From the NCBI RefSeq assembly GCF_964204645.1, contig NC_134026.1, positions 14,976,150 through 15,040,149 of the forward strand: a DNA stretch of 64,000 nt, given 5' to 3'. The stretch comes from Tubulanus polymorphus (taxonomy: Eukaryota; Animalia; Nemertea). How positions within the stretch are numbered: the stretch's first letter is position 1; every line of letters starts with the position of its first letter. The position numbers and the translations under genes are program-made. Positions 19,927-61,663 of this stretch are shown here, in pieces. Below the pieces are notes generated by a model. It searched no databases and had not been told where the DNA came from. It was given only the letters and a program-made list of their open reading frames with translations.

Positions 19927-20115
19927 GTTTCCAGACGGATTTCAAAAACAGATCCTCCTATGAGCTCAACAATACAGCCAAGATTATTCTTTAGGAAAGT
20001 GGCTGTAGATCGAATCACAGTTAGATTCCACAGTAGCCATAAGCTTAGCTGTGAGGCTGGTGGAAGTCCAACTCCTACAGTTTATTGGTTGTTTAATGGT
20101 TCGAGAATAATACAG
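19927..20115 (+). CDS. IMP-L2/ZIG-like protein, coding exon 2 (Ig1 N-half)
   Basis: CAG|VSRR...LSCEAGGSPTPTVYWLFNGSRIIQ|GT, 189 nt, phase 0/0. Confidence 0.9.
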
Positions 20116-20238
20116 GTAGTATTCTAAGATTTCTTTATTATCAAACCACCAGTATGATATTGAATGTTCTCTATTCCTATAACCTAAGAAAATATCAAAG
20201 TATATATGCTGCTTAATTATTTGTTATTATTTTGGCAG

Positions 20239-20434
20239 AGCAACTACTTTGATAGGGACCACGCTGTCCCTGAATTTGGAACTGTTTCCTCTTCTTCGGA
20301 GAAACTCATTCAATTAGGTTCAACAAAATCCAGGTTATTTATAGACTGTGTCAGTCAAATGAATGTAGGCACCTACACGTGCGTAGCAGAAACCCCGACC
20401 AGTAAAATTGTTTCGGAAACGATTTTGAATATAA
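20239..20434 (+). CDS. IMP-L2/ZIG-like protein, coding exon 3 (Ig1 C-half)
   Basis: CAG|SNYF...LGSTKSRLFIDC...GTYTCVAETP...|GTAAGT, phase 0/1. Confidence 0.9.
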
Positions 20435-25100: not shown

Positions 25101-25255
25101 AGAAGATAAGTTTGAATCCTGATGATGATAAAAGATATATTTTAGATGATGGTATACACACAGTTGCTTATGGTTGCAATTTAGATGAATACTTAAAGTT
25201 TAAAAGAGAAGAAACAAGAGAGAATGAGATTATGAAAAGGATTCTAGCATGTTAA
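22125..25255 (+). pseudogene. pPolB pseudogene with several internal deletions (HNH region and motif C/intein region lost)
   Basis: Collinear with copy A; sequence jumps at about 23852, 23920 and 24767 (ENLAAVK joined to ..KTLKHHFDFS). Confidence 0.88.
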
Positions 25256-30530: not shown

Positions 30531-30628
30531 TATCTATTTCTTCACAGAAAACCCTATTGAAATTCGCGTGATTATTATTATTTTTTTCCCCTTTTCCACA
30601 TAGTTTTTGTTAAAAGTGTAAAGGCTTC

Positions 30629-30748
30629 AGTAATTGGAAAAGTAGGCTTTCAGATCAGAGTACGAAGTACGAGACACCACTCATCACCACAAGTAATTTT
30701 TTTCCTAACACTCATCACCACAAGTAATTTTTTTTCCTAATTAATGGG
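30629..30748 (+). repeat. Left TIR of element C
   Basis: Reverse complement of 46962-47081; two direct copies of CACTCATCACCACAAGTAAT(T)n. Confidence 0.95.
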
Positions 30749-31070
30749 AGATAGAAAAGCATTCTTAGCAACAATAAATAACAGAATAAAACCAGCAAAA
30801 AAACAATTTGAAATAAAAAAGTTAGTTGATGTTACAAAAGAAATTGAACATAAAATATTGAAATTAGAAAAGATAAAAACTAAATATGGAGAGAAAGTAT
30901 CAGCTAATTTAAGCTACTGTAATGTTAGTACATCGCGAGAATTTAAAGTGTTTTTACCTGATAAATGGGTTTCATTGAGTACGGAGGAATTGAAAGATTT
31001 AGTAGGATTTAAAATAATATATCATGGGAAAAATGAAGACGGTCATCATGATTTAGAAATTGTTGATTAA
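30744..31070 (+). CDS. Small Polinton protein (possible OB-fold ssDNA-binding protein)
   Basis: 108 aa; KTKYGEKV and YHGKNEDGHHDLE motifs shared with the 117-aa ORF of copies A and B. Confidence 0.7.
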   Translation: MGDRKAFLATINNRIKPAKKQFEIKKLVDVTKEIEHKILKLEKIKTKYGEKVSANLSYCNVSTSREFKVFLPDKWVSLSTEELKDLVGFKIIYHGKNEDGHHDLEIVD

Positions 31071-31251
31071 ATTTTAAAAAAAATAAATTAATAGAAATAA
31101 TGAATATCTAGAATCCGAAATGACTTATCTGGACAATTTAATTGCTCCACATAGATGGTGCCATAAACAGCACCCACACAGTGATAGACAAAAGTAGTGA
31201 GATATTCAATTAATTAAAAAAAATTATTTTTTTTTGCTTTTTTCTAAAATA

Positions 31252-31620
31252 TTAATCCATTTTTTTTATTATCAATTTTGGAATTTCAGAAGTATTTTCA
31301 TTTTTGATAGCAGTTGTTTCAGAATTATTACTATCATGAATTTTATTTGATTTCTTATACCAATTACACCCAATCAAAATGAATACAATTACAAATCCAA
31401 CTGTAAAATATAGATATTTATCAAATATTCTACTATCAGAAGGAGTAGAAATAACAATATTTTCACCATTTTTATTAACATTTTTATTACTTATTTTTTC
31501 TTTTACAGCTTTTTTATATTCTTGTGATTTAATTCCTAATTGTCGAGACCATTCAATTTGTTTCTGAGTTCTCGGTTTTTTCTTCACAGTTAATTCCTTC
31601 ACTTCTTTCACTTCGCTCAT
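31252..31620 (-). CDS. Small basic protein with one TM segment
   Basis: TAAATG start; KKKPRTQKQIEW; hydrophobic YLYFTVGFVIVFILIG. Confidence 0.7.
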   Translation of the reverse strand: MSEVKEVKELTVKKKPRTQKQIEWSRQLGIKSQEYKKAVKEKISNKNVNKNGENIVISTPSDSRIFDKYLYFTVGFVIVFILIGCNWYKKSNKIHDSNNSETTAIKNENTSEIPKLIIKKMD

Positions 31621-32158
31621 TTATTATAGAAATATTTTTACTTTCAATATTTGAAAATGTTATAACCCCGGTTGATAATAATGTCATAAATCCACCTAAT
31701 TGAAATGATAAATATCCAATCCACTTATTTAATTCAGTCATAACTAAATAATCATATTTTAAATCGGAATATAATCTATTTTCATCTTCAATTGGTAGTA
31801 TATAATTACATAATTTACTATAACCTTTTACTACATTTTCTGATATCGCTTCATTAATTTTAGCTGTTCTCGCGGCTTCATAAATCTTAAATAATCTAAT
31901 AATTTCAACTGATTTCATTGTATCTAATTCATTATAAGTTAAATTTTTATCAACAAATTTTTTACATTTTCCAGATGCTATTAATATTTCTAATTGATGT
32001 TTGCAATAAAGATAATATTCATAATCATTATTTGTTGTAACATTATTTAAAGCACCATCATCTGGAGTTAATTTTGTTTCTGTTATTCCTAAATCATCTA
32101 AAGTTTTTTCAATTGGAACATCACCATTTTTAGATTTTATTTTCTTTTCACCTCCCAT
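31553..32158 (-). CDS. Polinton hypothetical protein with hydrophobic C-terminal segment
   Basis: 201-aa ORF in AT-rich DNA with TAAATG start. Confidence 0.75.
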   Translation of the reverse strand: MGGEKKIKSKNGDVPIEKTLDDLGITETKLTPDDGALNNVTTNNDYEYYLYCKHQLEILIASGKCKKFVDKNLTYNELDTMKSVEIIRLFKIYEAARTAKINEAISENVVKGYSKLCNYILPIEDENRLYSDLKYDYLVMTELNKWIGYLSFQLGGFMTLLSTGVITFSNIESKNISIINERSERSEGINCEEKTENSETN

Positions 32159-32169
32159 TTATAAAACAA

Positions 32170-32450
32170 ATAAATTAGTTGTGTTGTTGCAACTAGAATT
32201 CAACTAGAATGTAATTAGAATTCAACTAGATTAACAAGCTAGTTGAAATATTGTTGTTTTTGTTTATTTCTTGTTAAATCTAGTTGATTTTTGTTTCAAC
32301 TACTAACAACTAGAATTCAACTAGAATGTAACTAGAATTAAAATAGATTAACAAGCTAGTTAAAATATTGTTAAATCTATTTGATTTTTGTTACAACTAC
32401 TAATAACTAGAATTCAACTAGAATTCAACTAGATTAACAAACTAATTGAA
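32170..32450. repeat. Intergenic array of CAACTAGAATT-type degenerate repeats
   Basis: Many copies of (C)AACTAGA(ATT) in higher-order blocks; a similar stretch occurs at about 48255-48300. Confidence 0.75.
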
Positions 32451-32451
32451 T

Positions 32452-33060
32452 TTAAATAAATTCATATTTAAATGGGTGTTGTAATCTAAATAGTAATTTT
32501 GATCTTTTAATATTTTTCAACTTATCCATATATTCATTATGTAAATCATGTGGAATAATATCATTTTCCTCAAGTGCATTTTTCATCGATTTTCTATCTT
32601 TATTGTAGAATAAAACTAGAAATCTAATGTTTTCTCTAAAGTCTTTAACAATTGAATTATATTTTTGATTTAAAACCCAAGTTGTTATCCCAAAATGTCT
32701 CCCAGAGAAAGCTAAATAACATAACTCACTTTCTCTAATTTTAGAATCATGTAAATTTGCGCAATCATCTATGATAAATAATGTATTTGATCCTTTATAA
32801 ATATCAATTGCTATTTTTATACAATTATCTAAATTTTCTTTTACTGTTTTAGGATCTAATATAATAAATTTATTATTCCTAGTAATATTTTTATCATAAG
32901 TTTGATTAAATTCATACGTTGGGCAAAATAATACTATATTATCAAAATAGTTTTCATAAACAGTTTCTAATAAATTTAATATGAAATAAGTTTTTCCACA
33001 ATTTGTTACGCCAGATATTAACATATTATGAGGCTCAAATATAAATAATTCTTTATTCAT
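32452..33060 (-). CDS. A32/FtsK-like DNA packaging ATPase
   Basis: Walker A GVTNCGKT, Walker B LFIIDD, SGRHFGI and the downstream Q motif. Confidence 0.93.
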   Translation of the reverse strand: MNKELFIFEPHNMLISGVTNCGKTYFILNLLETVYENYFDNIVLFCPTYEFNQTYDKNITRNNKFIILDPKTVKENLDNCIKIAIDIYKGSNTLFIIDDCANLHDSKIRESELCYLAFSGRHFGITTWVLNQKYNSIVKDFRENIRFLVLFYNKDRKSMKNALEENDIIPHDLHNEYMDKLKNIKRSKLLFRLQHPFKYEFI

Positions 33061-34191
33061 TTATATATTTTTAATTTTACTTGATAGTATCCATTCATTG
33101 AATTTATCTGGCCATCCAACCCATTTTACTAAAGAATATTTTTTTCTTTTAACAGTTTTTGTTTTTAATACTTTTTCAATTTTATATTCTTGTTCTAGAT
33201 TTTCAGTAGTTAAACTTAATTCTTCTTCGTAAAAGTAGCCATCAACTTCTTCACCATCTAAATCTTCTAATTTATAGACATATGGTTTTGTTGTTATTAC
33301 CTTTTTTATTTTGTATATTTCTCTAGTAAAATTTCGATCGTATCCTTTGTCAAATATCTTTTTATACTTAGAAATTCTAACATTTTGACCAACTTTAAAT
33401 TTAGGTTCACCAAAATCATCAACAAGAAATGCTCCATATAAATTATTCCAAACAATTTCAGCATTTTCAGGTTTTCTAGCATCAATAGGTTTCATTCCAA
33501 TAGAAGAATGATAAGAATTATTATATCCTTCTATAAATTTTGGTAAAACATCAATCCATTTATAAGTATTATTTGCTGTAAAATATTTCCACATTCTTCT
33601 TGTTCTTAATGTTCTATTAAATCGTTCAACAACTGCTGCTTTTTTATCTGATTTTGTTGAAAAATATTTAATATTATGAAAATCTAAAAGTCCATGAACT
33701 AATGAATTATCAAATTCTTTTCCATCATCAAATTGTATTTTTTCTGGTTTTAGTTTACCACCTGAAAGAAATTTTCTTAAAACATTTGATGTTTGTACAG
33801 CATCTTTTCTATAAAGTGGGAAACTCCATACATAACGACTAAAAATATCAATTATATTCAATAACCACCAATAATCATCATTATCTTTCTTAACATTTTT
33901 CATATCAATTAAATCTCCTTGCCACTGTTGATCTACATAACTTACCATAGTTTTACGAGTTTTATATTTTCTAACAATTTTTTTATGTGTTGTATATGTT
34001 GGTTGTTCTAACATAAATTCATTTATATCTTTATATTTAACTAAATTTTGTGGGATTATCTTATCTAATTTATCTTGTTTTACTTTACGCCATATATTTT
34101 TAGTAGAAGAATAAGCAACCGAACTCTCAGGGTTGTAATATAAATTTCTTAAATATTGTTCTTTAGTATTAGGAGTTTTTTTACCACTCAT
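33061..34191 (-). CDS. Retroviral-like (rve) integrase with C-terminal chromodomain
   Basis: WQGDL, QFDDGKEF, VVERFNRT; YKIEKVLK...LVKWVGWPDKFNEWI. Confidence 0.95.
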   Translation of the reverse strand: MSGKKTPNTKEQYLRNLYYNPESSVAYSSTKNIWRKVKQDKLDKIIPQNLVKYKDINEFMLEQPTYTTHKKIVRKYKTRKTMVSYVDQQWQGDLIDMKNVKKDNDDYWWLLNIIDIFSRYVWSFPLYRKDAVQTSNVLRKFLSGGKLKPEKIQFDDGKEFDNSLVHGLLDFHNIKYFSTKSDKKAAVVERFNRTLRTRRMWKYFTANNTYKWIDVLPKFIEGYNNSYHSSIGMKPIDARKPENAEIVWNNLYGAFLVDDFGEPKFKVGQNVRISKYKKIFDKGYDRNFTREIYKIKKVITTKPYVYKLEDLDGEEVDGYFYEEELSLTTENLEQEYKIEKVLKTKTVKRKKYSLVKWVGWPDKFNEWILSSKIKNI

Positions 34192-34221
34192 TTATATATC
34201 CTTAATTTTAACTTTATATTT

Positions 34222-35469
34222 CTAATATTGAATACTATCTAATTGAGAATTTACAATATTTAATTGTGCGTCAGATATAATATAAATGTGCATTTTAAAA
34301 TTTTTGATTCCTTTATTCTTTTTCATAAATAATTGTATTCCATCTTTAGTGTTCTGTAGTTTTTTTCCAGAACCATGTAATAAGTTATCTTCAGTTGTTC
34401 TAAAATCTAACCATAATGCATATTTATTACCGGTATAATAATCAATTTGATTAATGTTACAATTTTCAGATGATTTCACTTTTTCATTCATAAAATGTTT
34501 TCTAATTTCTGGCCATTGATCAATCATTCTCATTCCTTGACAAAATATTTTATTCGCTATTCCTTCGATAGTTATTTCTACTTTTGTTATTTCAGGATTA
34601 TAATAATTATCAACATTTATTGCACCATTAGAATATGTTGCAATAGTAAAAAATATTAATATACCTTTAATAGATCTTCTAGGAAAGTTAATATTCTCAT
34701 TAATTATTTCATCATTTGCATTAATAGTTACAGTTTTAAATTTATCAATATAATCATATAATAATGAAAATCCTTGATTGTATTGAGTTTGAATTGTGCT
34801 AGCAATATTTTCATTAGTTATTGTGTTATATTCTAAACATATATTCGATAATTTATAACTCATATCTTTAACAACGCTAGATAATACAATTTCATTTACA
34901 GGAGCAAATGTTATCTCAAATATAATATCTTCTTGAATTGCGTATTTATATAAAGGTGCATTATTATTTATCAATTCAAAGTCTAATGGAATTTTATATT
35001 TGCTTCCATAAATCTTTTTAATCAAATTATCTGTGGCACGAGTTACTACTGCATTATTGGCTTCAGATCTTAATTTATTATGGTTTTCCGATTGGATGCC
35101 TTGAAATATCATATTATTTCTATTTTCTTTAGTTAACCATAAATCTTTATAATGCATAAATAAATTATAATCATCTAATGAGAAAACTGTTTCCGGACCA
35201 ATCTTTATTGTTAACTTTTTAATCAAATATCTTCCAACATTATCAACAACATAATTGTTATCATGGCCAGTTACTTTTATATCGGCTGATAAATAAATAC
35301 TGTTTGGAACATAAAAAGTATTTTGTGTTAATCGAGGGATTCTAACATATAAAGTTTCATCGGGATTAATATTTGAAGGGTTATGAGTAATTATATGATG
35401 TGATCTTTCTGCTTTAATAGCATTAGATATTCTATGATTCTTCGAAGGACTTATATAACTCCCACTCAT
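34222..35469 (-). CDS. Major capsid protein (double jelly roll, hexon-like)
   Basis: 415 aa, beta-rich; NPSNINPDETLYVRIP, KIPLDF, YKLSNICLEY, YNPEITKVEITIEG and LWLDFRT..HGSG pattern as recalled for invertebrate Polinton MCPs; position next to integrase and ATPase. Confidence 0.8.
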   Translation of the reverse strand: MSGSYISPSKNHRISNAIKAERSHHIITHNPSNINPDETLYVRIPRLTQNTFYVPNSIYLSADIKVTGHDNNYVVDNVGRYLIKKLTIKIGPETVFSLDDYNLFMHYKDLWLTKENRNNMIFQGIQSENHNKLRSEANNAVVTRATDNLIKKIYGSKYKIPLDFELINNNAPLYKYAIQEDIIFEITFAPVNEIVLSSVVKDMSYKLSNICLEYNTITNENIASTIQTQYNQGFSLLYDYIDKFKTVTINANDEIINENINFPRRSIKGILIFFTIATYSNGAINVDNYYNPEITKVEITIEGIANKIFCQGMRMIDQWPEIRKHFMNEKVKSSENCNINQIDYYTGNKYALWLDFRTTEDNLLHGSGKKLQNTKDGIQLFMKKNKGIKNFKMHIYIISDAQLNIVNSQLDSIQY

Positions 35470-35513
35470 TTATTTAACAAAAAAATTAATTATTTATTTT
35501 TTGATATCATGGT

Positions 35514-36950
35514 TTACTTGATATTTTTTGATATCATATTTACTAAACCAAAAATAATAGCACTTACAACTGTAATTAAAAATAAAATAATATGTTCAGC
35601 AGCAATGTTAATAATGTTTCCTGCAGATTTCAATATAAAACCAACAATTGAAGCAATAACTCCTGGTAAAGCTGCAGCAGATTTCTTTGATAGTTCCCAT
35701 AAATATTTTGCTAATTTCTTTAAACCATCCTTAACTTTATCTTGTATAGAATTATTACCTGGAGGTTTATCTGGTTTGTTAGGAGTGGGAGTAGGAGTAG
35801 ATTTCAAAGCATTTGATATAGCTAAACCTATTGTTGTAAATAACATAGTAACAGATGTTAGAATTGAAAGAATTGTTATTCCTTCTAATTTAAATAATAA
35901 TTTTATTCTGTCTTTCAATGATATTTTAGAATCTGGTTTTATCAACAAATCTTTAAAAATAACTTTTAATCTATTAATATTATAATCATATGATTTTAAC
36001 AATAATTTAATTTCTTCTTTTTGTAATTCTATGTTATATTCTAAATCATCTTTTTCTTTTTCTAAACGTAATTCTTTTTGCCTATATTCTATTTCATCAA
36101 TTACTTGATGATCTAAATCAGACTTTAGTTGTTCTATTTCTTTATTTTTATCAGTTAATTCTTTTTCTAAAATTCTAATTTTAAAATCTCTTATACTTTT
36201 ATTATGTGCAATTTTATCACATGCAAGTCTTATACTAATAATTTCTCTAATTGCTTTATCAGAAAATATATTTAAATCTTCTAATTGTTGATTTGTTGCA
36301 TCAAGTAATCCATTTGGTAAAAGTTTTACAGTTTGAACTTTATTTGATTTAAGTTTACTATTTTTGGAAGTTATATTCTGTTCAGAAGTTGTTTCTGTTT
36401 CTAAATTTTCATTAATTATCTTAAAAAATTTAGCATTTCTTTGTTTAAATTCTTTTATATTATAATCTCTTTCTTCTTGTGTAACATCAATTATAGCATC
36501 ATTTTTTATTTTCTTAATTCTAGATTGTTCTAATAAATTAAAAGTTGATTGTGTTATTATTTTATCACTATTTTTAAGATTTGAAATCTTAAAATAATAG
36601 TCGCCTTTCAATTTCCAATAATATTCACCATTTAAAAATTTTAAATCTTCTACTAAATGATCCATACCTTTATTTGTTATATTGAAACCAGATTTTTCTA
36701 ATATTGGTTTAAATTTATGAATAATTTCATTATAATTGTATTCTTTTTCTGTTATTTCTGGTACTTCATTTTCAATACTTATCTTTGAACGTGCTTTGTC
36801 AATAAATTGGGGTGTAGTTAAATTAGAATTATATGCTGATTCATTACCATCATTAAAACTTGTTTCATCAAAATCAGGTGGTTGTTCATCAGTTATACCA
36901 GGTTCATCAAAAGGATCCATTCCAATATCTTCTACACCTTCTACATCCAT
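35514..36950 (-). CDS. Coiled-coil protein with C-terminal hydrophobic/TM helices
   Basis: 478 aa; acidic N-terminus, heptad-rich middle, GITILSILTSVTMLFTTIGL, AAALPGVIASIVGFIL, IILFLITVVSAIIFGLV. Confidence 0.8.
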   Translation of the reverse strand: MDVEGVEDIGMDPFDEPGITDEQPPDFDETSFNDGNESAYNSNLTTPQFIDKARSKISIENEVPEITEKEYNYNEIIHKFKPILEKSGFNITNKGMDHLVEDLKFLNGEYYWKLKGDYYFKISNLKNSDKIITQSTFNLLEQSRIKKIKNDAIIDVTQEERDYNIKEFKQRNAKFFKIINENLETETTSEQNITSKNSKLKSNKVQTVKLLPNGLLDATNQQLEDLNIFSDKAIREIISIRLACDKIAHNKSIRDFKIRILEKELTDKNKEIEQLKSDLDHQVIDEIEYRQKELRLEKEKDDLEYNIELQKEEIKLLLKSYDYNINRLKVIFKDLLIKPDSKISLKDRIKLLFKLEGITILSILTSVTMLFTTIGLAISNALKSTPTPTPNKPDKPPGNNSIQDKVKDGLKKLAKYLWELSKKSAAALPGVIASIVGFILKSAGNIINIAAEHIILFLITVVSAIIFGLVNMISKNIK

Positions 36951-36966
36951 TTATATAATAAAAAAA

Positions 36967-38268
36967 TTAAAATTTAAAATATAATATTCCTCCGATTACA
37001 ATTCCTATACAAGTTATAGCTAATTTAGTATTTTCATGGGATTTATTATCATCATTTAGTTTAATTATATCATGTTGAATATTATCAGTTCTATTATTTT
37101 CTGATGTATTATAATCTTTTATTTTAGAATCATTATTTAATTTAATATTCTTAGTTTTAGTTTCTGTTGATTGAATGTGTTTTTTATTTTTTTCACCTTC
37201 CATTAATTTTGGAGCAGTAATAATCTTTTTATTTATATCATTCAATCCAAATGAATTATTTATTGTTGCAGTTTTAATTAGATTATTATAACCAATTATA
37301 TTTCCCATCTTCAATACTAAATCATTAGAAATAATTAATAGATTAGGGCCTATACAATAATTAAGTCTTACATGAGATTTATCTAAATAATTTTGATATC
37401 TTATAATGTTTTCTGGAATCGATCTATTTTTATCATTATGAATTGAATCTTCAAATAAAACTTTAAACTGTTTCTGCGCATCGAATGAAGTGTTATCATT
37501 TCCAATTATTGGGGATCTTGTTTCAACTTGAGCGCCTAAAATACATATCAAATAAATTCTAATAGATTGATTTATTCTTTGTATACCTGATTTTGTAAAA
37601 CCTTCACCATTTTCTAAAATGAAATTAACCCAACCATTATTATTATCAATTTTATAATTATGATAGGCTGAAATTCTATGCATATAATCAATTCTTTTTA
37701 TTTCATACTCTTCACCAACACCTTGCAATTTACCATGCGCTCTGAAATCGGAATTAATATTTATATTAAATTCATTACATATTTTATAAAACTTAGATAT
37801 ATTAATATTATTATCCAATTCTTTAAAATATTTAGACCCAGGTAAAGGACATTCTAATTCATTTAATATTATTCTGATTTGAAAATATGTGTGAAATCTA
37901 AATATTGTGTGAATTAATTTTAAATCAGAATACTTCAAATTTTTATCTAAGTTATTTAAATGATCATTCCAACTTATTCCACATCCTGTTGTTGCACAAT
38001 AAACAGCAAAATTTAATTGATTCTGCCAATATTTCATATTAGATTTTACTTTATATATATGATATTCATCTCGAGTAAAAGTAACTTCATATGTATTAAA
38101 TATATTTTCCATTTTAGAAATAAAAAACTGTGATTCATTAACATAAATTTCTAAATTAGTTAATGAATTTAAAACTATATTTTTATATGTAATATTTTTC
38201 TTAAAATCTATTGCCGGAATATTATATTTAATTGATTTATTATATTGGAAAGCTTTTGGAAACCCCAT
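36967..38268 (-). CDS. Conserved Polinton protein (WQNQLNFAVYCATTGCG motif), C-terminal membrane anchor
   Basis: 433-aa ORF, conserved in copy B; ends LAITCIGIVIGGILYFKF. Confidence 0.8.
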   Translation of the reverse strand: MGFPKAFQYNKSIKYNIPAIDFKKNITYKNIVLNSLTNLEIYVNESQFFISKMENIFNTYEVTFTRDEYHIYKVKSNMKYWQNQLNFAVYCATTGCGISWNDHLNNLDKNLKYSDLKLIHTIFRFHTYFQIRIILNELECPLPGSKYFKELDNNINISKFYKICNEFNININSDFRAHGKLQGVGEEYEIKRIDYMHRISAYHNYKIDNNNGWVNFILENGEGFTKSGIQRINQSIRIYLICILGAQVETRSPIIGNDNTSFDAQKQFKVLFEDSIHNDKNRSIPENIIRYQNYLDKSHVRLNYCIGPNLLIISNDLVLKMGNIIGYNNLIKTATINNSFGLNDINKKIITAPKLMEGEKNKKHIQSTETKTKNIKLNNDSKIKDYNTSENNRTDNIQHDIIKLNDDNKSHENTKLAITCIGIVIGGILYFKF

Positions 38269-38284
38269 TTATATAACTAAAAAA

Positions 38285-38719
38285 TTAATAATTTATTAAT
38301 TCTTTTAATAATTTATCTTGTTCTTCAACTGTTATATGACCATTTAAACTTATTATATAATCTAGTGTGTTCTTTAATTTATTAATTTCTTTTATATTAG
38401 TTTTAATTTTTTCTTTATTACTTTTTATATTTAATTTTGAACTTATACCAGTTAAAACACTTGAACTTAATCCTAACACACCAATTGATATAGCTAAAGG
38501 TGTTAATGGACTGAATATTGCTAGAAATGTTATTACAGAACTAATTGTAACCGAACCACTTATAATCAAATAATATATAATTTTACTTTTTAAATATTTT
38601 TTCTTTTTTATCTTTAAGTCACTTTCAAATTCTAATATTTGTTTTTCTAAATATGTTTTTAATTTAGTTTTATTTATATCATGAGGAATAATATCAATAT
38701 TATCAACTTTATCTTCCAT
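38285..38719 (-). CDS. Two-TM membrane protein
   Basis: 144 aa; paired hydrophobic helices flanked by Lys-rich coils. Confidence 0.75.
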   Translation of the reverse strand: MEDKVDNIDIIPHDINKTKLKTYLEKQILEFESDLKIKKKKYLKSKIIYYLIISGSVTISSVITFLAIFSPLTPLAISIGVLGLSSSVLTGISSKLNIKSNKEKIKTNIKEINKLKNTLDYIISLNGHITVEEQDKLLKELINY

Positions 38720-38738
38720 TTATTTAGAATAAAAATTA

Positions 38739-39161
38739 CTAATTAGTAAACTTATAAGCAACAAATATAACAATAACAGTTCCACCTAAAATCCAAATTA
38801 TTTCATATTTCTGTTGTTCTTTACTTGGGGTATAATAATCTGATAATTTAGGTTTGTATAGATGTAATTTTTCTTTATTTGTTACTGCGTTATATAAACT
38901 CATTGCATCATCAACTGATTGAAAATCTCTATGTGAAATCTTCTGATCATATAATTCTTTATTGATGTAATCCATATAGTTTTGTCTCTTTTCTCTATAT
39001 TCTTCTGCAGCTTTATTGTATTTCTCTAACGCTAAGTTATGTCTTCTTTGTTCTCCTAATGAACTATTTTTATCAATATGTTTAAATAAATAACCACCAC
39101 CAGTAAATGCTAAAGCGTTAACAATTGCCGATCCTATAATAGTTATAATTGCAGAAGCCAT
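38739..39161 (-). CDS. Small membrane protein (NALAFTGGGYLF motif)
   Basis: 140 aa; conserved in copy B. Confidence 0.8.
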   Translation of the reverse strand: MASAIITIIGSAIVNALAFTGGGYLFKHIDKNSSLGEQRRHNLALEKYNKAAEEYREKRQNYMDYINKELYDQKISHRDFQSVDDAMSLYNAVTNKEKLHLYKPKLSDYYTPSKEQQKYEIIWILGGTVIVIFVAYKFTN

Positions 39162-39185
39162 TTATTTAACAAAAAAATTATGCAT

Positions 39186-39407
39186 TTATATGGGAGGAAT
39201 ATATTTTTGTTTTTCCAAATAATCAATAGTTAAATTAGATAAAGTAACTGCTAATGTTAATTTTAGAATATCATTTATATCAAATCTATCAACATTAACA
39301 CTTCCCATTTTGAATACTTTTTTTAATACCATTGAATAACCAACAGTTCCAACTGATAGTAATGCGCCATTATATAATCCAGTTATTATTCACTTATTAT
39401 CACTCAT
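39186..39407 (-). pseudogene. 73-codon small membrane protein with premature stop (not in the ORF track)
   Basis: MSDNK*IITGLYNGALLSVGTVGY...DYLEKQKYIPPI; codon 6 is TGA here but TGG in copy B (start 26770). Confidence 0.75.
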
Positions 39408-39764
39408 TTATTTATCAAAAAAATTACTATCATCAAAATATTTAGTTATCTTATTTATGATTAATTCAACATTTATTTTATTACTAGTTTCATTTGTATA
39501 TATTTCAATTATTATTTTTTTAATATCATCGATGATAAAATCTTCATCTAATTCATAAAATCTTAAAGATTCTCTAATTAAATTAGTAATCTTTTCTACA
39601 TTTAAAGTTTCTTTATCTATTGTTGTTTCATACTCAAATGTTGTTTCATTAGAAAATGTTATATTTTTGATATGTGTTATTACATCATTAATGTTAAATT
39701 TCATTTCTTTCTCACGTTTAAAATCAAATCCAAAACATATACTCGGTCCAACAGTTATATTCAT
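39408..39764 (-). CDS. Polinton hypothetical protein
   Basis: 118 aa; homolog in copy B. Confidence 0.72.
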   Translation of the reverse strand: MNITVGPSICFGFDFKREKEMKFNINDVITHIKNITFSNETTFEYETTIDKETLNVEKITNLIRESLRFYELDEDFIIDDIKKIIIEIYTNETSNKINVELIINKITKYFDDSNFFDK

Positions 39765-39780
39765 TTATAAAGGTGAAAAA

Positions 39781-40539
39781 TTACTCTTTACATCTTATAA
39801 CTAATTCATAAATTACAGGAAAGTTATTCAAATCAATTAAATAACCATTATGATTTCTTATTTCTAATTTAAAATTATTGAAATGTGGGATACAAGGTTT
39901 GAAATCACATTCAGTTAAATTATAATTTATTTGAGTTCCAAATTGTTTGACATTTTTTAATGGTAAAATATTTAATAAACCAGAATTACAAATTGTATCT
40001 TTAGTTGCTTCAAATATTTTTGTAGGATCGATTAAATTGCAATAAATATAAAAGTGTGTAAAAGGTATTATATTTGAGTTACCTTCTGCGTATGCTGTAA
40101 CGGTATCTGGTGCAATTCCTAACAGTTTAGCTAAAGGTTTTCTTATTGTAAATTTAAATTGTTCGTCATTAGCTAACCTAATCTTTATTTTATTAGAACT
40201 AGCACTTTTTAAAATTCTAATACTAAATCCGGAATCACTTCCTAATTTAGCTCGAGCTTTTCTATTAATTTCTTGTGTTAATGTATCTAAATTATATTAT
40301 CCTGGTTTTAAATATATAAAAAACCATTTATTCCTTTTTTTGTAAAAGATTGAAAAAATTAAATGTTCTAGACTTTTATCCGATATATTATAAAAAGAAT
40401 TACATAAACTTATATTAACTAATTTTAAATCTACACAATTCTTAAATTCTTTATCTAATTGTACTAATAAATTATGAGATTTATAATTTGTAAGTTTTCT
40501 AGAATCAACAAATATTCTGTATTCTTTTAATTCTACCAT
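39781..40539 (-). pseudogene. Minor capsid (penton-like single jelly roll) gene with an in-frame stop
   Basis: 253 codons; PG*YNL (TAA at 40297-40299) corresponds to PGLYNL (TTA) in copy B; NSFYNI and FYIYCNLI-type motifs. Confidence 0.72.
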
Positions 40540-40607
40540 TATTTATAACATAAAAAAATTACCGCTCATCACTAAAAATTAATCTTAATAAAATTTTTCC
40601 TTAATAA

Positions 40608-41906
40608 ACGGATGAGAAGATAGCATGCGAAATTTGTGGTGAACTTCTAAGAAAAAGTAATATGGCTCGACATATGAAAAAACATGATGAAAATTATAAA
40701 CCCCCTAAAATAAACTGTCCAAAATGTAATAAATTATTCTCAAGAAATTATGTTAAAAAACATTCAGAGAAGTGTAGAATTAATGGCGCAACGGCTAATG
40801 TTGATAGTAATTCTGCTGAAGTTGAACCTGAAGTTATTTGGAAAACACCTTTCTTATTCTATGATAAGGATAATATAAAAGATCATTTCTGTGAGCCTTG
40901 TCAAGTAAAATATAGCCCTGAAAATATAGAAGATTGGGAGAATCATCAATTTCGTAAAGCACATATAGATAAAATTTCTAATAAATTTGAAACTGAATTC
41001 AATGAAAGAAAAAATAATTTATTAGAAAAAATAAAATATGAGAAAACGTTACCAGATAATAAAGAAACAGTTGAAAAGTTAGAAAAACAATATAATGAAT
41101 TAACAAGAAAAACATATTATTGTAAATATTGTAAATTGATTATTACAACAAGTAATTCAAATCTACATAATAGAACAATAAAACATAAAGAAAACGTAAG
41201 AAAATACCAAGAGCTTAATGAAGATCTATTACCAAGAAATTATAAACAAAAATGCCCACAATGTAGTTATGCGACCTTAAGGCAAGAAGGTACTGTGTTA
41301 TTTTGTGTTGAATGTGGATGGCAAAAGAATTTATGGGGTGAAGAAAAAACTAGAGATTTTCTCATAGAACCAAAATTAAATTATCTAGATGAAATTTTTA
41401 AAATATTTTCTATAGAAGATCATACACCAGAATATATGCAATGGCTTGAAAAAATGAAAATAATAGAAAATAAAAATGGTGAAATAACTAAAAAAGATAT
41501 TATAAAAACAATTATTCCACCAACATTTAACACAAAACAAAAGAAAATGTATTTATATTTATTATTTAACGATTATTATGAAAAACCTAAATTAACAGAA
41601 GAAGATATGGAAAATATAAAAAAAATATTTAAACAAATATTAATGTATCATTTGGAAAATAGAATAACAGATTCAATAAATTATGAATTCTTTTTAAATA
41701 AGATTGTAAATTATTTAAACCTAGATATTATAATTCCATTTGATGAATTAACAAACAAAAAGAAACAAAGAGAGCGAGATGAAATGTGGAACAAGATAGA
41801 ACTTTATTTAAATGAGAAAAATGGAATGGAAGAAGAACCTGAACAATTAAATGAAAATGAAGAAGCCAATAGTGATTTCGAGTTTGATGATATAGATCCA
41901 TTTTAA
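40608..41906 (+). CDS. Multi-zinc-finger protein with VLTF3-like (poxvirus A2/NCLDV late transcription factor) C-terminal region
   Basis: Several CxxC/HxxxH fingers; ribbon CPQC...EG..LFCVECG; PKLTEEDMENIKKIFKQI, INYEFFLNKI and KQRERDEMWNKI resemble VLTF3 motifs. The frame extends upstream of the track start (40662) to TAAACG at 40608, completing a CEIC..H..H finger. Confidence 0.68.
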   Translation, partial: TDEKIACEICGELLRKSNMARHMKKHDENYKPPKINCPKCNKLFSRNYVKKHSEKCRINGATANVDSNSAEVEPEVIWKTPFLFYDKDNIKDHFCEPCQVKYSPENIEDWENHQFRKAHIDKISNKFETEFNERKNNLLEKIKYEKTLPDNKETVEKLEKQYNELTRKTYYCKYCKLIITTSNSNLHNRTIKHKENVRKYQELNEDLLPRNYKQKCPQCSYATLRQEGTVLFCVECGWQKNLWGEEKTRDFLIEPKLNYLDEIFKIFSIEDHTPEYMQWLEKMKIIENKNGEITKKDIIKTIIPPTFNTKQKKMYLYLLFNDYYEKPKLTEEDMENIKKIFKQILMYHLENRITDSINYEFFLNKIVNYLNLDIIIPFDELTNKKKQRERDEMWNKIELYLNEKNGMEEEPEQLNENEEANSDFEFDDIDPF

Positions 41907-44900
41907 TAACCATAAGGTAATGTTTTTATACCATCATCTGAAATATGCCTTTTATCATCAAATGGATTTAAACTAGTTTTTTCAACTTCATTAATGTACA
42001 TCTCATGATCTTCTGATCTTAAACAATTCATCTTGTGTTTCATTACAATTGATTTATATAAACACTTTATATAATCTTGAAATTCTATATGTTTATCAAC
42101 CACATGTTTTGTTATTCCTTTTAACTTTTTAGCTTCATGATCTTTTGTTCTGTAACTATACATTTTACTTCTTATCCCAACAAATTCAGTCATTTCATCA
42201 CCTCCTAATTCATCTTTAAATTTACAAGGAATCTTTTTATTATCATTGCTAAATAGTTCATGATCTTTAGGATAATTGCTAAAATCAAAATGATGTTTTA
42301 ATGTTTTTAAGTCTTTTGTTATGTCATTTGTCTTGATTTTTAGTATGTACGCATCCGTATTTTTTTGGATTAATGGGAACCCAGAATTGAATGTTCCATC
42401 ATCTGTTGATAAATCATAAACATAGTCAGTTGGGTTATATATTTCAAATAAATCTTTAACTTCTTCAGTTAAATCTTTTTCTACATGCCTTAAATTAAAG
42501 CAATTTGGTTTAGATTTAATCAATCCAATATTCATATTGAAGCCTAATGAACTGCATAACACATTTAACCCACTTATTGCACATTTTCCATTCTGTGCAA
42601 AGGTTATCGTTTTATCCTTTATAAATTTTTTAGTACCATCGGCTGCGTAGAACCCAATGAAGAACCATTTTCTAAGATTATATTCTGAATTTAATATATA
42701 ATCTGGTACTATTTTTTCTTTAGTTGAAGTATTACTTTTCACTATTGCATGAATATAGAATTCATCATTATATTTTATAGCAAAATCTTTAGGATTATTT
42801 ACAAGTATTCTATAAACCGCGGATGATTTCATAACATCCATGATTCTAAATGTTTTATGTGAATAAACTTCTTCACAGAATTTCTTAATTCTTTCTAATA
42901 ATTTTAAGTCTTGATTGCATAAATACCAACAATATTTATTACCCCAAACATATTTATACACACCTGCTGAACCATCACCCATGAAAAATCCTTTGATAAA
43001 ATATTCTTTTTCTTCCAATGTTTCGGGTTCTATATTATAAATATTATCAATTATTTCATCAAATGACATATGATTCATTCTTGGGAAAAATCTTTTATGT
43101 AATAATTCATCTCCAATTTTTATATCAGTTGGTTTTATTTCATCACCATTTCGTTTAATTAAACTGTGGTCTTCAGTAACATCTACAAATCCTAATTTAG
43201 TTCTAACTCTATAGATTTTCTTATTTGTTTTATGTCTAATAATATTCTTTAATTTTTTCCATCCATTTCTTGTCCAAACATCTATTAAACCATTTATTTG
43301 TATTAGTTCTTTTTCACCATATGAAATATAAGATTTATTTTGATTAGGAATTATTTCTGAAATTCTTCTAATTAATATTTGGTTATTGTATTTTAATAAT
43401 ATTGGGGTGTCAGCTGTTACAGAATCGAAGTATAGAATTTCTATATGTTTTTCCCCAAACAATGGTTGTAATACATTGTAATAAAAATCATACATTAATA
43501 ATTTTGATATTTCTAAAACTGTTGAACCAATGAAAATGGGTTTATTAAATTTCATTGACGTTCTTTTTAATTTTACTGCTGTTAAATAATCTTCAAATCT
43601 TTTATTTCCTAAATGTCTAGGACTTGATTGTAGGTGTCTCAATCGTTCAGAATTATTTACTAATTCAATATCATTTCTATTTCTAATATTTTCACATGTT
43701 TTACCATAAAAACTATTGTTCATTAATTTGAAGAAATCTTTTTCAAAATCTGTTTTTGATATGGTTCTCTGTTGAGTATTGAAATCTATATATTTTTCTA
43801 ACCACTTTGATTGATTAAATTCAATATATCTATGTACTTTCTTTAATTTCATTCCTTGTTTTAGATAAAATTTTAACATTCTATAATGAACAATATAATT
43901 ATATTTATTATTTTGAGTAAGTATTAATTTTTCTGTAAAAACATGATCTTTCGGTTTTATTTTCTTCTGGTATTCACTTAAATAACTATCATCTACAGTT
44001 AAATGTTCTGGGCAATAAGGTAAGTTTCTTGTTTTAAACTTTATGTTATCAGGATATTCTAAATCAACTACAAAGAAATAACCAATTGGTGCTTCATCTT
44101 CTAAACTCATAATTGCGCTTTCCCAATTAGTTTTATCATCATTTTCAACTTCTGTTAATATAAAATTTTTATATGGTTGAGGTTGCATCATTGCCCAACC
44201 ATATAAATTATTGGCGTCAATATATAATAATTTATATTCATCATTTGCTTTAAAATACCTATCTCCCATAACACCACTAATTCCACCTCTAATTGAGTTT
44301 TCAAATAATAAAACCATATCTGGTTCTTTTAATAAATCTAATTCTACATTTGTATATTTTAAACCACATTGCCAGGTTAAACCAGGACTTGAATAACAAT
44401 AACAAGGATCAACATTAAAATGATTCAAATTAACTTCTCTAAATTTTTCAAATATGTCAGCTAATATCATAACATCTGATTTTAAATATAAATCAACTAA
44501 TTCACCATGATTTTTCATCTTAAAATGGTTCCAAATATTTAATGTTCTATCAAAAACTTCGTCTTTCACATACTCCTCTTTTAATTTATCATAAAATTGA
44601 TCTTTTAATAATTCTGTTACATTAAAATCATCATGTGTTTTATAAAATGAATAAGGAATTGCGCCTTTATATCTCAGTAATTTAAAATCTTGTTCATTTG
44701 GATAATAATATCGAGTTATAACAAAATCATTATCAACTAAACTTTTTGATAAATTATCTAATGAACTTGCTAGAAATCTATAAGAATCTAAAAATCTAAT
44801 GCAACCAAATTGAAATGAAATATAATTTTCAGATGTTTTAGCTAATAGTTTAAAATCATATTTTCTTACATTTGCTTCATTCATAGCATTATATTCTTCT

Positions 44901-46966
44901 ATTTCTTGATTAATTGCACCCAATTTTCCTGATAATTGTTTTATAAATAGATGGGTATCATATCCTGATAAATTATGAAATAATATTGGTACAAAATTTA
45001 CTTTTTTAGCTTGTAAATTGCAATCTTCATGAGCAGCTCCACGATATTTTGAATTCAAATGATCATGATCTCTAACTCTTTTATCAAATGAATAAAAACG
45101 TTTTTCACAATAACAACAATGAGTTGCATAATTAAAATCAATTTCATCTTCTTTTGTCATAACTATTCTTTTATTTTTGTTTAATAATTTTGCAAAATCA
45201 CTTTCTAATTCAATAATTTTATCACAAAAATCATTAACTACATTTTCACCTCTAAAAGAAATATATTGACTTTCATATAATTCAGGATAATTTGATTTTA
45301 TGTAAATTCCATAAGCAGCAGCTCTTTGATGAACTTTTTTAATTGTATTTATAATTGGCGGGTCTTGTATTGTGTCTTCATTTAATTCATTTCCTTTATC
45401 CATTGATTTTAATAATTGCTTTTTGTTATATATTTCTTTTCTATCTTGATCAGTTAATTCTTTATTCAACGATTCAAAATCCCCATAAATTACAAATGGA
45501 ACAATATTTTTAAATTTATGATTAGTAAATTTCAATTTATAATCTTTTTCTGTTGGCATTATTAATTTACAAAAATCTTTATTATCACATAATTCTTTAT
45601 GTTTTAATAATGTATTCTCAGTCATAAATTTGGATAAACATTTTCTACATAGATAAATTTTATTATGATGATCACTTTCTGTTCTAAAGAATAAATCAAT
45701 TTGTTTTAACCACATATAATGTTCATTTTCATCTTTTTTGTAATATAACAAATCTATAGCATTTTCATCATCATAATATTCTGTTAAATATAAAGCTTCC
45801 AATGTATAATCTTTAATATTTTCACCTTTTGTCTTTGGTAATTGCATTAATTCGAATACATTTATTTTTAAATTATTAACTTTTTCTATTTTAGGAATCA
45901 TTTTTATAGTTACTGGATATTGATCAATTTTATATAATGTTTCATATTTCCGATAATCTGTTATTCTACAAACATTTTCCTGTGTTGGATGTAAACAACT
46001 AATAATTGACCATAGAAAACATTTATTATCTTCATTTTGAACATTTATTACTGCTTTTGTTGTAAACGGTAATTTGATATAACTTGATGCTTTCATATCC
46101 TTTTCTGTTGTAAAGTTTGAATCATTTTTAAACATTTTATTACTTTTTGATGTTTTATTCCTTTTTGTATTATAAACATTTAAATCTAAATATATAATTT
46201 CATTCAATGTTAAGCCAGAACCCTCAAAATATCTTTCTTCAATATGACGTTTAAATTCATTTAATATTTTTTCTAACTTCTCTTTTATTTGTGTTTTTGA
46301 AATTATTTCTTCAGAGTGTGTTTGAATATTATAATCCATTTTTTCTTCTGACTTTATAAAACTTACTTTCCCAGAGATACTAATTTTTGGATATTCAACA
46401 TCTGTTATCAAATCTAGTATTTTTTCTATTATTTCATTAAATTTACTATAATCTTCTATTGTTGTACCTTTAAAAAATCTAAATATAATAGCTGCAGGAC
46501 CAATTTTACTATGTAATGTTTCTAAGATTTCAATTGTATCTTTTATTTCTAGTGAATCAATATAATTTCTAATATTTTCCATGTAAGGTTTATTTGAAAT
46601 GGATTTAGTTTTTGAAGTTGATTCTTTTACTTGTTGAGGTTTATCATCAAAATAATCTATTCCTAAAACATTATTTCTCAAATTTTGATGGTGTTTTTCT
46701 GTTTCGAGATGTTTATTATAATTCCTTTTTGTTATAAATTCATCACAAACTTCACATTTTATTTCATCCACATTCATATTTTCTAATCGTTCTTTTCTTT
46801 CAATGGAATTTTCTGGAGTTTCAAAATCTATAACATTTTTTATATGATTTGAAGATTTTTCATGTTTAGATTTATTAGATTTATCGATGTATTTTTTACA
46901 ATATTGACAATAATATTGATTTTTATTGATATTATTGTTTTCTAGTTGGTGTTCATTCTCCCCCAT
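41903..46966 (-). CDS. polB: Protein-primed family B DNA polymerase precursor (1687 aa) containing an intein
   Basis: Two N-terminal Zn fingers; OTU-like DNKCF...EHY; ExoI YGDFES; HNH/EndoVII-like CCYC..RDHDH..AHEDCN; ExoII FHNLSGYD; ExoIII YLKSDV; IRGG; motif A YIDANNLY; motif B KLMNNSFYGK; split motif C YFD/TDA; KLKG. Confidence 0.97.
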   Translation of the reverse strand: MGENEHQLENNNINKNQYYCQYCKKYIDKSNKSKHEKSSNHIKNVIDFETPENSIERKERLENMNVDEIKCEVCDEFITKRNYNKHLETEKHHQNLRNNVLGIDYFDDKPQQVKESTSKTKSISNKPYMENIRNYIDSLEIKDTIEILETLHSKIGPAAIIFRFFKGTTIEDYSKFNEIIEKILDLITDVEYPKISISGKVSFIKSEEKMDYNIQTHSEEIISKTQIKEKLEKILNEFKRHIEERYFEGSGLTLNEIIYLDLNVYNTKRNKTSKSNKMFKNDSNFTTEKDMKASSYIKLPFTTKAVINVQNEDNKCFLWSIISCLHPTQENVCRITDYRKYETLYKIDQYPVTIKMIPKIEKVNNLKINVFELMQLPKTKGENIKDYTLEALYLTEYYDDENAIDLLYYKKDENEHYMWLKQIDLFFRTESDHHNKIYLCRKCLSKFMTENTLLKHKELCDNKDFCKLIMPTEKDYKLKFTNHKFKNIVPFVIYGDFESLNKELTDQDRKEIYNKKQLLKSMDKGNELNEDTIQDPPIINTIKKVHQRAAAYGIYIKSNYPELYESQYISFRGENVVNDFCDKIIELESDFAKLLNKNKRIVMTKEDEIDFNYATHCCYCEKRFYSFDKRVRDHDHLNSKYRGAAHEDCNLQAKKVNFVPILFHNLSGYDTHLFIKQLSGKLGAINQEIEEYNAMNEANVRKYDFKLLAKTSENYISFQFGCIRFLDSYRFLASSLDNLSKSLVDNDFVITRYYYPNEQDFKLLRYKGAIPYSFYKTHDDFNVTELLKDQFYDKLKEEYVKDEVFDRTLNIWNHFKMKNHGELVDLYLKSDVMILADIFEKFREVNLNHFNVDPCYCYSSPGLTWQCGLKYTNVELDLLKEPDMVLLFENSIRGGISGVMGDRYFKANDEYKLLYIDANNLYGWAMMQPQPYKNFILTEVENDDKTNWESAIMSLEDEAPIGYFFVVDLEYPDNIKFKTRNLPYCPEHLTVDDSYLSEYQKKIKPKDHVFTEKLILTQNNKYNYIVHYRMLKFYLKQGMKLKKVHRYIEFNQSKWLEKYIDFNTQQRTISKTDFEKDFFKLMNNSFYGKTCENIRNRNDIELVNNSERLRHLQSSPRHLGNKRFEDYLTAVKLKRTSMKFNKPIFIGSTVLEISKLLMYDFYYNVLQPLFGEKHIEILYFDSVTADTPILLKYNNQILIRRISEIIPNQNKSYISYGEKELIQINGLIDVWTRNGWKKLKNIIRHKTNKKIYRVRTKLGFVDVTEDHSLIKRNGDEIKPTDIKIGDELLHKRFFPRMNHMSFDEIIDNIYNIEPETLEEKEYFIKGFFMGDGSAGVYKYVWGNKYCWYLCNQDLKLLERIKKFCEEVYSHKTFRIMDVMKSSAVYRILVNNPKDFAIKYNDEFYIHAIVKSNTSTKEKIVPDYILNSEYNLRKWFFIGFYAADGTKKFIKDKTITFAQNGKCAISGLNVLCSSLGFNMNIGLIKSKPNCFNLRHVEKDLTEEVKDLFEIYNPTDYVYDLSTDDGTFNSGFPLIQKNTDAYILKIKTNDITKDLKTLKHHFDFSNYPKDHELFSNDNKKIPCKFKDELGGDEMTEFVGIRSKMYSYRTKDHEAKKLKGITKHVVDKHIEFQDYIKCLYKSIVMKHKMNCLRSEDHEMYINEVEKTSLNPFDDKRHISDDGIKTLPYGY
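42359..43423 (-). other. Intact 355-aa intein with LAGLIDADG homing endonuclease (pol-c site)
   Basis: Residues 1182-1536: block A SVTADTPI, block B VTEDHS, block C FIKGFFMGDGS, block E FFIGFYAADGT, block F YVYDLST, block G IQKN followed by +1 Thr. Confidence 0.95.
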
Positions 46967-47081
46967 TTATTAGGAAAAAAAATTACTTGTGGTGATGAGT
47001 GTTAGAAAAAAAATTACTTGTGGTGATGAGTGGTGTCTCGTACTTCGTACTCTGATCTGAAAGCCTACTTTTCCAATTACT
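46962..47081 (-). repeat. Right TIR of element C
   Basis: Ends ...TTTTCCAATTACT at 47081, followed by the TSD GGCTTC. Confidence 0.95.
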
Positions 47082-47409
47082 GGCTTCCTTACCTTACCGC
47101 TGTCGCCGATACAATCCGTATGATATCCTTCAGCTCACTTCAATCTCCAGATACTGCATGGGAATTTTGATAAATCCACGTTATAAAGGCACTGTCGAGC
47201 CGTAAACATCGGAAATTTGGCTCCGTTCAATTAGTAGCCATGTTGTATTTTCTTTCCGATATTTCTCTCTTCTTTTCGAGGAAGATCTGCAAAAACCGTA
47301 ATGTTTCCAATGTCTCCGTTTTTAACGCATGCGCATTAGTGAGTGTTGGGGAAATTCTCTAAGTCCAGAAATCGGTTGAGTGCGCAGGCGTCACTACATG
47401 TCAGAATGT

Positions 47410-48985: not shown

Positions 48986-49011
48986 AATATATGAAATTAA
49001 AAGATGCTGTT

Positions 49012-50112: not shown

Positions 50113-50212
50113 CGTTTCATGCTAAACATATCATGATCTTTAGGATAGTTACTGAAATCAAAATGATGTTTTAATGTTTTTAAATCATCGGTTATGTTAT
50201 TAGTTTTTATCT

Positions 50213-61505: not shown

Positions 61506-61663
61506 GGTCACCAGCTAGAATATATACGTGGACAAGTGATCAAGTTGAACGAGAAAGTGCAGTGGTCCAACTGCATTGCCGAGCATCTGGCTATCCTGCA
61601 CCTCATTTTGTATGGTTGGACCCACAACGAAAATTAATTGGCACCGGCCAATCTAATTACCAG
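61506..61663 (+). CDS. IMP-L2/ZIG-like protein, coding exon 5 (Ig2 N-half)
   Basis: TTTAG|.SPARIYTWT...VQLHCRASGYPAPHFVWLD...NYQ|GT; phase 1 matches the donor at 20616. Confidence 0.88.

Follow-up and report, generated by a model that had tools for sequence, protein, structure and literature searches.

A LAGLIDADG intein, predicted to splice and likely spreading by homing, at the pol-c site of a multicopy animal Polinton family

The question raised by the locus described here is whether a complete intein can reside, and move, in an animal nuclear genome. The window, a stretch of 64,000 nucleotides from contig NC_134026.1 of the nemertean Tubulanus polymorphus (positions 14,976,150 to 15,040,149), contains a Polinton whose protein-primed family B DNA polymerase (pPolB) gene is broken by an in-frame insert of 1065 nt. 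Our reading, to which we give a probability of about 0.78, is that the insert represents a complete LAGLIDADG intein occupying the pol-c site in a multicopy family of animal Polintons, predicted from its sequence to splice and likely to be spreading by homing. The coordinates of the features are collected in Table 1.

The insert and its splicing residues

The insert corresponds to residues 1182–1536 of a 1687-residue open reading frame (ORF 41903..46966, minus strand). Its junctions read HIEILYFD/SVTADTP and GFPLIQKN/TDAYILKI, and the insertion point lies between the first Asp and the Thr of the PolB motif C (YxDTD), which makes it a pol-c allele. The boundary of the intein is fixed independently, since the nearest intein-free relative, P0165, aligns to residues 15–1182 (64%) and 1536–1686 (77%), that is, it stops at residue 1182 and restarts at 1536, and it reads YFDTDS without a break at the insertion site. 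The first-pass annotation of this stretch, made from the letters alone, had described an in-frame insert splitting motif C as YFD/TD, and both the junctions and the P0165 alignment agree with it; the restored polymerase of 1332 aa that it proposed is matched by the exteins, which together have that length. It had also equated the site with that of archaeal and giant-virus polymerase inteins. This holds as well: the flanks of the eight viral-contig loci examined are all YGD/TDS polymerases, and the mimivirus and archaeal inteins use the same site (PMC549080, in excerpt). PF03175 has no match on the window pPolB itself, but the relatives and atlas neighbours do match, and the window polymerase is assigned to pPolB because its relatives carry this domain.

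The core residues of a class 1 intein are in place: Ser1, the block B TxxH motif, the block F Asp, the terminal Asn and, directly after it, the +1 Thr. The relatives considered below are the best 120 of 320 matches in the intein search; the intein was delimited in 96 of the 120, three were dropped (two with wrong ends, one short), and the tree has 94 rows. The block B TxxH is kept in 90 of 94 delimited relatives. The profile check suggested in the first pass finds both the Hint and the LAGLIDADG parts: TIGR01445 (the intein N-terminal region) scores 33.8 bits on the insert (cut-off 24.5) and LAGLIDADG_3 scores 26.4 bits (cut-off 22.5), whereas Intein_splicing (PF14890), at 30.1 bits, stays under its own cut-off of 35.8.

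A structure model of the intein, with an alignment of 30 sequences as input, has a mean pLDDT of 87.2 and a pTM of 0.89. Its top solved Foldseek matches are the TliVMA, PI-PkoII, PhoVMA, PI-PfuI and PI-SceI inteins (E 1e-16 to 1e-9), and I-DmoI ranks next, after these endonuclease-bearing inteins. The closest solved relative by sequence is PI-PkoII (E 3e-5). The best named fold matches are, in order, those from an unknown phycodnavirus, Pandoravirus, Marseillevirus and Megavirus. Sequence and model together feature two LAGLIDADG helices ending in acidic residues and the alpha-beta-beta-alpha-beta-beta-alpha repeats by which LAGLIDADG endonucleases are recognised, and a modelled Hint fold encloses the insert.

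Both assisting histidines, which are common but not obligatory in class 1 inteins, are absent, the block F His being replaced by Gly and the penultimate His by Lys, and this weighs against splicing. The earlier statement that all intein blocks are present stands for the motifs, but the block F His is missing in addition to the penultimate one. However, Gly/Lys is the most frequent state in the delimited relatives (44/94, versus 32/94 for His/His), giant-virus polymerases being included among the Gly/Lys inteins, and hence the absent histidines do not single out this copy as decayed.

The two positions covary: Gly/His is seen in one and His/Lys in none of the 94 inteins, counts that ignore kinship. 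The covarying Gly/Lys pair suggests a coordinated alternative route for cyclising the terminal Asn. A literature search for a penultimate Lys in inteins yielded nothing.

Comparison of the intact polymerase with the decayed copies A and C of the same window gives dN/dS of 0.08–0.17 for the exteins and 0.24–0.29 for the intein. The endonuclease part has 0.20–0.39 despite the decay of copies A and C, the Hint halves have 0.14–0.43, and none of the three divergent copies has lost a nucleophile. As estimated from these ratios, the exteins, the intein and its endonuclease are all under purifying selection. By the established biochemistry of inteins and polymerases, a precursor with a split catalytic YxDTD needs splicing to work, and purifying selection on the exteins of intein-bearing copies implies that splicing has worked. 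The near-identical terminal repeats of the carrier and its perfect target duplication, together with this selection, also suggest that splicing is needed; we infer that replication of the element depends on it.

The insert might, on the other hand, be a splicing-dead or poorly splicing relic in an inactive polymerase, the element having been moved in trans by intein-free helpers. The two missing histidines, the low Intein_splicing score and an in-frame stop in the minor-capsid-like gene of this copy would all fit such a relic. Nevertheless we consider it very unlikely, given the prevalence of Gly/Lys over His/His in the relatives, including giant-virus polymerases, the retention of nucleophiles in three divergent copies, the low dN/dS of the Hint halves and the strong purifying selection on exteins interrupted by the intein. 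If the intein splices, as we prefer to think, the 1687-aa precursor would be inactive as a polymerase, its motif C aspartates being 355 residues apart, and class 1 splicing via Ser1, the block B Thr and His, the block F Asp, the terminal Asn and the +1 Thr would release a 1332-aa enzyme, with the Gly/Lys pair replacing the usual two histidines.

Related inteins and signs of mobility

Among the matches listed, the closest inteins reside in protein-primed polymerases: P0002 (64% identity), P0003 (50%) and P0004 (48%), then P0005 and P0006 (both 46%), P0010 and P0011 (both 42%). Inteins of RNA-primed PolB follow at 30–42%. Cluster representatives, when searched, contributed a further close relative, the fragment P0407 (74%), which has a polymerase C-extein. 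Over the full length, no match on viral contigs (37 loci) or on metagenome contigs (80 of 132 kept) exceeds 42%; the viral contigs that come nearest, with this value, are giant-virus metagenome-assembled genome records.

The intein tree was built by a quick method and midpoint-rooted, with SH-aLRT supports only. In it, the eight inteins of protein-primed polymerases form one clade (SH-aLRT 100), nested in a group of 32 rows (SH-aLRT 99) whose other members all interrupt RNA-primed PolB, apart from one intein in a thymidylate synthase. The search and phylogeny against giant-virus PolB inteins proposed in the first pass thus place the eight inteins as a single clade inside the PolB group. Its suggestion of an acquisition from a giant virus is borne out as to kinship with giant-virus pol-c inteins, but not as a direct transfer: as pPolB inteins reach 64% and 50% and giant-virus contigs only 42%, the intein of this particular element did not come straight from a giant virus. 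Since the tree is midpoint-rooted and lacks bootstrap, the direction from giant virus to Polinton is one that we infer. The likeness to the mimivirus intein, also noted earlier, extends to giant-virus pol-c inteins generally rather than to mimivirus in particular, as Megavirus is the fourth named fold match and the terminal KN occurs in 47 of 97 delimited inteins. The G+C content (25.9% in the intein, 23.4% in the exteins) is not informative.

Some relatives interrupt other proteins. The inteins of P0026, P0007, P0099, P0105, P0112, P0118 and P0119 reside in thymidylate synthase (CRGD/TD) or in type II topoisomerases (DQD/TD); always situated between Asp and Thr-Asp, they appear to be cases of ectopic homing to mimics of motif C. 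A pol-c intein of the same family is found in P0116 from the green alga Chloropicon primus, named DNA polymerase delta catalytic subunit. The invariant HKTNKKIY of alignment A1 was discarded as evidence, being a product of the search pattern.

The presence of the intein was then counted in the best 120 relatives of the upstream extein, anchored on the alignment. The site is empty in 104, filled in five and unclear in one, and ten relatives end before it; thus 104 of 109 readable relatives, about 95%, are empty. On an extein tree of 41 rows, the intein label requires eight changes, versus a mean of 8.3 for shuffled labels. The carriers thus appear scattered over the polymerase tree, while the inteins are monophyletic. 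Filled and empty states occur together in two 90% clusters: P0003 (filled) is 98.3–98.5% identical to P0131 and P0132 (empty) upstream of the site, and the filled/empty pair P0139 and P0142 is 99.5% identical. Members of the first of these clusters are on contigs of up to 1.0 Mb. P0005 is a protein-primed polymerase of a different class, without a BLAST match to the window N-extein, and its intein is from the same clade. One old entry followed by homing among Polintons would explain a monophyletic intein on scattered exteins.

The polymerase copies within the window tell a similar story for one pair. Between the intact copy and copy A, dS is 0.34 in the intein and 1.04 and 1.91 in the exteins, and identical synonymous codon pairs make up 240/280 in the intein and 236/353 in the exteins (Fisher p 3.5e-8, with sites not independent); the tract of high identity begins a little upstream of the intein. 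Copy C, compared with the intact copy in the same manner, does not show this difference (p 0.40). Both acidic LAGLIDADG residues are kept in 8/8 inteins of protein-primed polymerases, versus 66/94 overall. Copy B was tried as an empty allele and rejected: its deletion, which ends in a short shared stretch, also takes about 140 nt upstream and 41 nt downstream of the intein, and with the flanks lost as well as the intein site, copy B does not qualify as a clean empty allele.

A second study under the same species label supplied raw reads (12% of one run), and these contain numerous divergent copies with the intein. To positions 39000–49000 of the window, 47,758 reads were matched, 3164 of them at an identity of at least 99% and 13,242 below 90%. 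The presence of reads in all identity classes implies that the intein-bearing family is multicopy and occurs in more than one sample. The depth is 138–242 over the intein and 405–425 in the flanking polymerase bins.

Several observations weigh against homing. The tract shared with copy A fades in the last third of the intein (0.67–0.76 at gene positions 4323–4500), which requires later recombination or more than one event instead of a single clean conversion tract. The change count is raised by the deliberate inclusion of the nearest empty neighbours in the extein tree, and both the intein and the extein trees are quick ones, without bootstrap or outgroup. The lower depth over the intein fits empty copies but equally well faster divergence. 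Finally, an intein-skipping joint is absent among the 15 shown of 254 read joints in this host.

A part of these observations would be accommodated by a real, splicing intein that was already present in an ancestral Polinton polymerase, was passed on by vertical descent and was lost repeatedly, with no homing at present and with the mosaic caused by ordinary recombination. The eight inteins do form one clade that partly tracks the exteins (P0003 with P0004; P0010 with P0011 and P0006), the joints shown include none that skips the intein, and the copy A tract falls short of the whole intein. However, with the site empty in all but five readable relatives, precise loss would have had to occur very often; there are filled and empty alleles that hardly differ; P0005, with its unmatched N-extein, has an intein nested in the same clade; and purifying selection acts on the nuclease, whose two acidic residues are retained. 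Vertical descent is therefore judged unlikely, and homing among Polintons is the best reading of the sequence comparisons, the evidence pointing to a spreading lineage rather than a relic.

Under homing, the freed intein would act as a monomeric LAGLIDADG nuclease with two motifs, cutting Polinton polymerase genes that lack the intein at the codons for motif C; a filled copy would then serve as the repair template, and the cut empty gene would be converted. A single entry into protein-primed polymerases is likely, from the giant-virus PolB intein pool that uses the same site, and the intein may subsequently have moved among Polinton lineages, even between polymerase classes. Integration of a Polinton would have brought it to the animal germ line, where it may persist as a parasite of a parasite. 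That such mobile, Polinton-specific inteins cycle in animal germ-line nuclei, with element replication dependent on splicing, we hold to be slightly more probable than its negation.

The carrier Polinton and its animal locus

The carrier has the features of a Polinton, namely terminal inverted repeats that agree at 121/124 positions (98%), a 6-bp target duplication, a pPolB, an rve integrase and a packaging ATPase, the polymerase being its last gene. It is a recent insertion nested in remnants of other Polintons. The repeats, the GGCTTC duplication, the integrase and the A32-type ATPase bear out the earlier naming of the element. The major capsid candidate has atlas neighbours at 0.97–0.98, including double jelly-roll (DJR) and capsid clusters, which have low recognition value. 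The gene with the in-frame stop is a putative minor capsid gene, judging by its motif and position. No protease was recognised among the 24 ORFs scanned, and Rfam and tRNA scans of the whole window gave no matches.

Residues 615–656 of the pPolB (about 44999–45124) form a Cys-rich RDHDH...RGAAH..CN stretch, whose motif resembles that of the endonuclease VII/HNH domain of pPolB2. The stretch has no Pfam match in the window protein, whereas PF02945 matches the relatives P0169 and P0170. With the intein, the window polymerase would carry two unrelated nucleases.

Table 1. Features of the window (window coordinates)
Feature	Position	Strand	Remarks
Full-length pol-c intein, 355 aa	42359..43423	-	Hint N, LAGLIDADG endonuclease, Hint C
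Block A	43403..43423	-	Ser1 nucleophile
Block B	43166..43177	-	TEDH (TxxH), intein residues 83-86
LAGLIDADG helix 1	42971..42997	-	GFFMGDG, acidic residue; model helix 136-150
LAGLIDADG helix 2	42635..42661	-	GFYAADG, acidic residue; model helix 248-262
Blocks F and G	42359..42421	-	VYDL, Gly at block F His position, penultimate Lys, terminal Asn
Protein-primed family B DNA polymerase precursor, 1687 aa	41903..46966	-	uninterrupted frame
Polymerase copy A, decayed	473..5255	-	divergent subfamily; intein at about 880-1940
Polymerase copy B	22325..25175	+	heavy deletions
Polymerase copy C, decayed	55431..60450	-	91.5% identical; intein at about 55890-56940
Carrier Polinton, 16,453 bp	30629..47081	.	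AGTAAT termini
Left terminal inverted repeat	30629..30751	+	
Right terminal inverted repeat	46959..47081	-	
Target-site duplication, left	30623..30628	+	GGCTTC (6 bp)
Target-site duplication, right	47082..47087	+	GGCTTC (6 bp)
A32-type packaging ATPase	32452..33060	-	Pox_A32 50.9 bits
Retroviral-like integrase, C-terminal chromodomain	33061..34191	-	rve 36.7 bits (cut-off 32.6); Chromo E 2e-4, sub-cut-off
Major capsid protein, double jelly-roll type (likely)	34222..35469	-	weak Capsid_N and atlas neighbours
Minor-capsid-like gene	39781..40542	-	in-frame stop
Two host exons (to 20115; 20239-20434)	19927..20434	+	123-nt GT-AG intron, one Ig I-set domain; first acceptor uncertain
Host Ig-domain exon	61506..61663	+	phase-1 acceptor

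Ig domains are matched by 3/49 stop-to-stop frames scanned in the non-Polinton stretches of the window. These exons bear GT-AG signals, and among solved structures they are closest to neurofascin, Robo, DSCAM and Lar. The donor at 20435 and the acceptor at 61506 are both phase 1 and hence compatible; the Polinton nest may therefore occupy a single intron, of 41 kb, of an Ig-domain gene. A Gypsy element is a neighbour; the named organisms among its 120 relatives listed are all animals, save for one Chara protein. The window stretch is present in 5/11 sequencing runs listed; four of these share one study and one species label, and the source sample itself may be among them. One RNA run contributed a single matching record, which does not bear on expression in either direction, and a marine metagenome with a share of 0.06 yielded short pieces alone and was set aside. 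The first-pass placement in an animal genome is thus sustained by spliced Ig exons on both sides, by the animal-type relatives of the Gypsy element and by reads from a second study, and the intein lies in what these features identify as an animal nuclear locus.

It could be objected that the contig is chimeric, or that the element comes from a protist symbiont or contaminant, the closest polymerase relatives being on short contigs and the whole stretch not being spanned by any contig matched from sequencing runs. We find this highly improbable: the target duplication links both element ends to one flanking site, the nest lies between animal-type Ig exons whose splice phases are compatible, the element has decayed copies and a Gypsy insertion around it, and runs of two studies under one species label contain it, with the raw-read depth exceeding 100 in 12% of one run.

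The surroundings of the carrier are rich in related sequence. The intact Polinton (30629–47081) is situated inside related Polinton remnants that extend over 22000–51900. Short palindromic units with AGTAAT ends (150–400 bp), found at 5767–5937, 21893–22044 and 51478–51880, are possibly non-autonomous Polinton derivatives. A Polinton integrase gene at 6060–6875 is interrupted by a Gypsy LTR retrotransposon (6880–11000), and decayed Polinton sequence at 49355–50119 contains a minisatellite with about 33 copies of a 24-bp unit.

Known systems and biological meaning

The nearest described systems are the mimivirus R322 intein, of 351 aa, and the inteins at position III of archaeal PolI, both pol-c alleles (PMC549080, in excerpt). 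They share with the intein studied here the site (YxD/TD), the size, Ser1, the terminal Asn and Thr+1, the TxxH motif and two LAGLIDADG motifs; identity to inteins on giant-virus contigs is 33–42%. However, they interrupt RNA-primed PolB, whereas here the host is the protein-primed polymerase of a 16-kb integrating element, and the intein is multicopy in an animal genome and of a lineage that forms its own clade. Endogenised viral polymerase inteins have been described on nuclear scaffolds of Klebsormidium, Tetrabaena and a labyrinthulomycete (PMC10710043, in excerpt). There, too, a virus-borne polymerase intein enters a nuclear genome by integration, but the hosts are algae and protists and the context is that of giant viruses; here the host is an animal and the carrier is a Polinton with intact ends and signs of spread. 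Neither Polintons nor Metazoa are mentioned in the excerpted text and two supplements of that paper.

HNH and VSR nuclease domains are known inside the pPolB of animal Polintons (PMC10748475, in excerpt), and one sentence in an excerpt of PMC11071308, citing that paper, reads the nuclease domains of polinton pPolBs as suggestive of intein invasions. These domains are likewise nucleases embedded in animal Polinton polymerases; unlike the present insert, which possesses the two Hint halves and splits the active site, they stay in the mature pPolB and have no reported splicing domain. The terms intein, Hint and LAGLIDADG have zero occurrences in the portions of the text and supplement of PMC10748475 searched. 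Adintoviruses and Mavericks (PMC8502044, in excerpt) resemble the carrier in pPolB, rve integrase, A32 ATPase, capsid, terminal repeats and 6-bp duplication. The word intein is absent from the excerpted text and supplement of that survey, and from the text of the vertebrate Maverick survey PMC8097293. The Hint domains of animal Hedgehog proteins have the common Hint fold and N-terminal acyl shift chemistry but, unlike this intein, are immobile, carry no endonuclease and do not join two exteins together (PMC5784728 and PMC7765530, in excerpt).

In the excerpts of the same two surveys, nuclear inteins of eukaryotes are recorded in fungi, algae and protists only, with no animal, and viral polymerase inteins in giant-virus families only. 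Searches of the open literature, which did not extend to subscription papers, InBase, Repbase or preprint supplements, turned up no account of a Polinton with a splicing intein; within these bounds the impression of novelty in the first pass is upheld. The intein allele itself is known; the class of its host protein is new and so, as far as searched, is the kingdom.

A full intein in an animal Polinton would remove the animal boundary for inteins, with a route from giant virus to Polinton to germ line. It would also record physical contact of giant viruses with Polinton ancestors, and so bears on the question of a virophage-like lifestyle of Polintons. The His/His and Gly/Lys pairs offer a natural comparison for histidine-free cyclisation of the terminal asparagine, and filled and empty alleles that are 98–99.5% identical make homing in eukaryotic nuclei directly testable. 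If the reading is true, this would be the first natural LAGLIDADG homing system on a multicopy target in animal nuclei.

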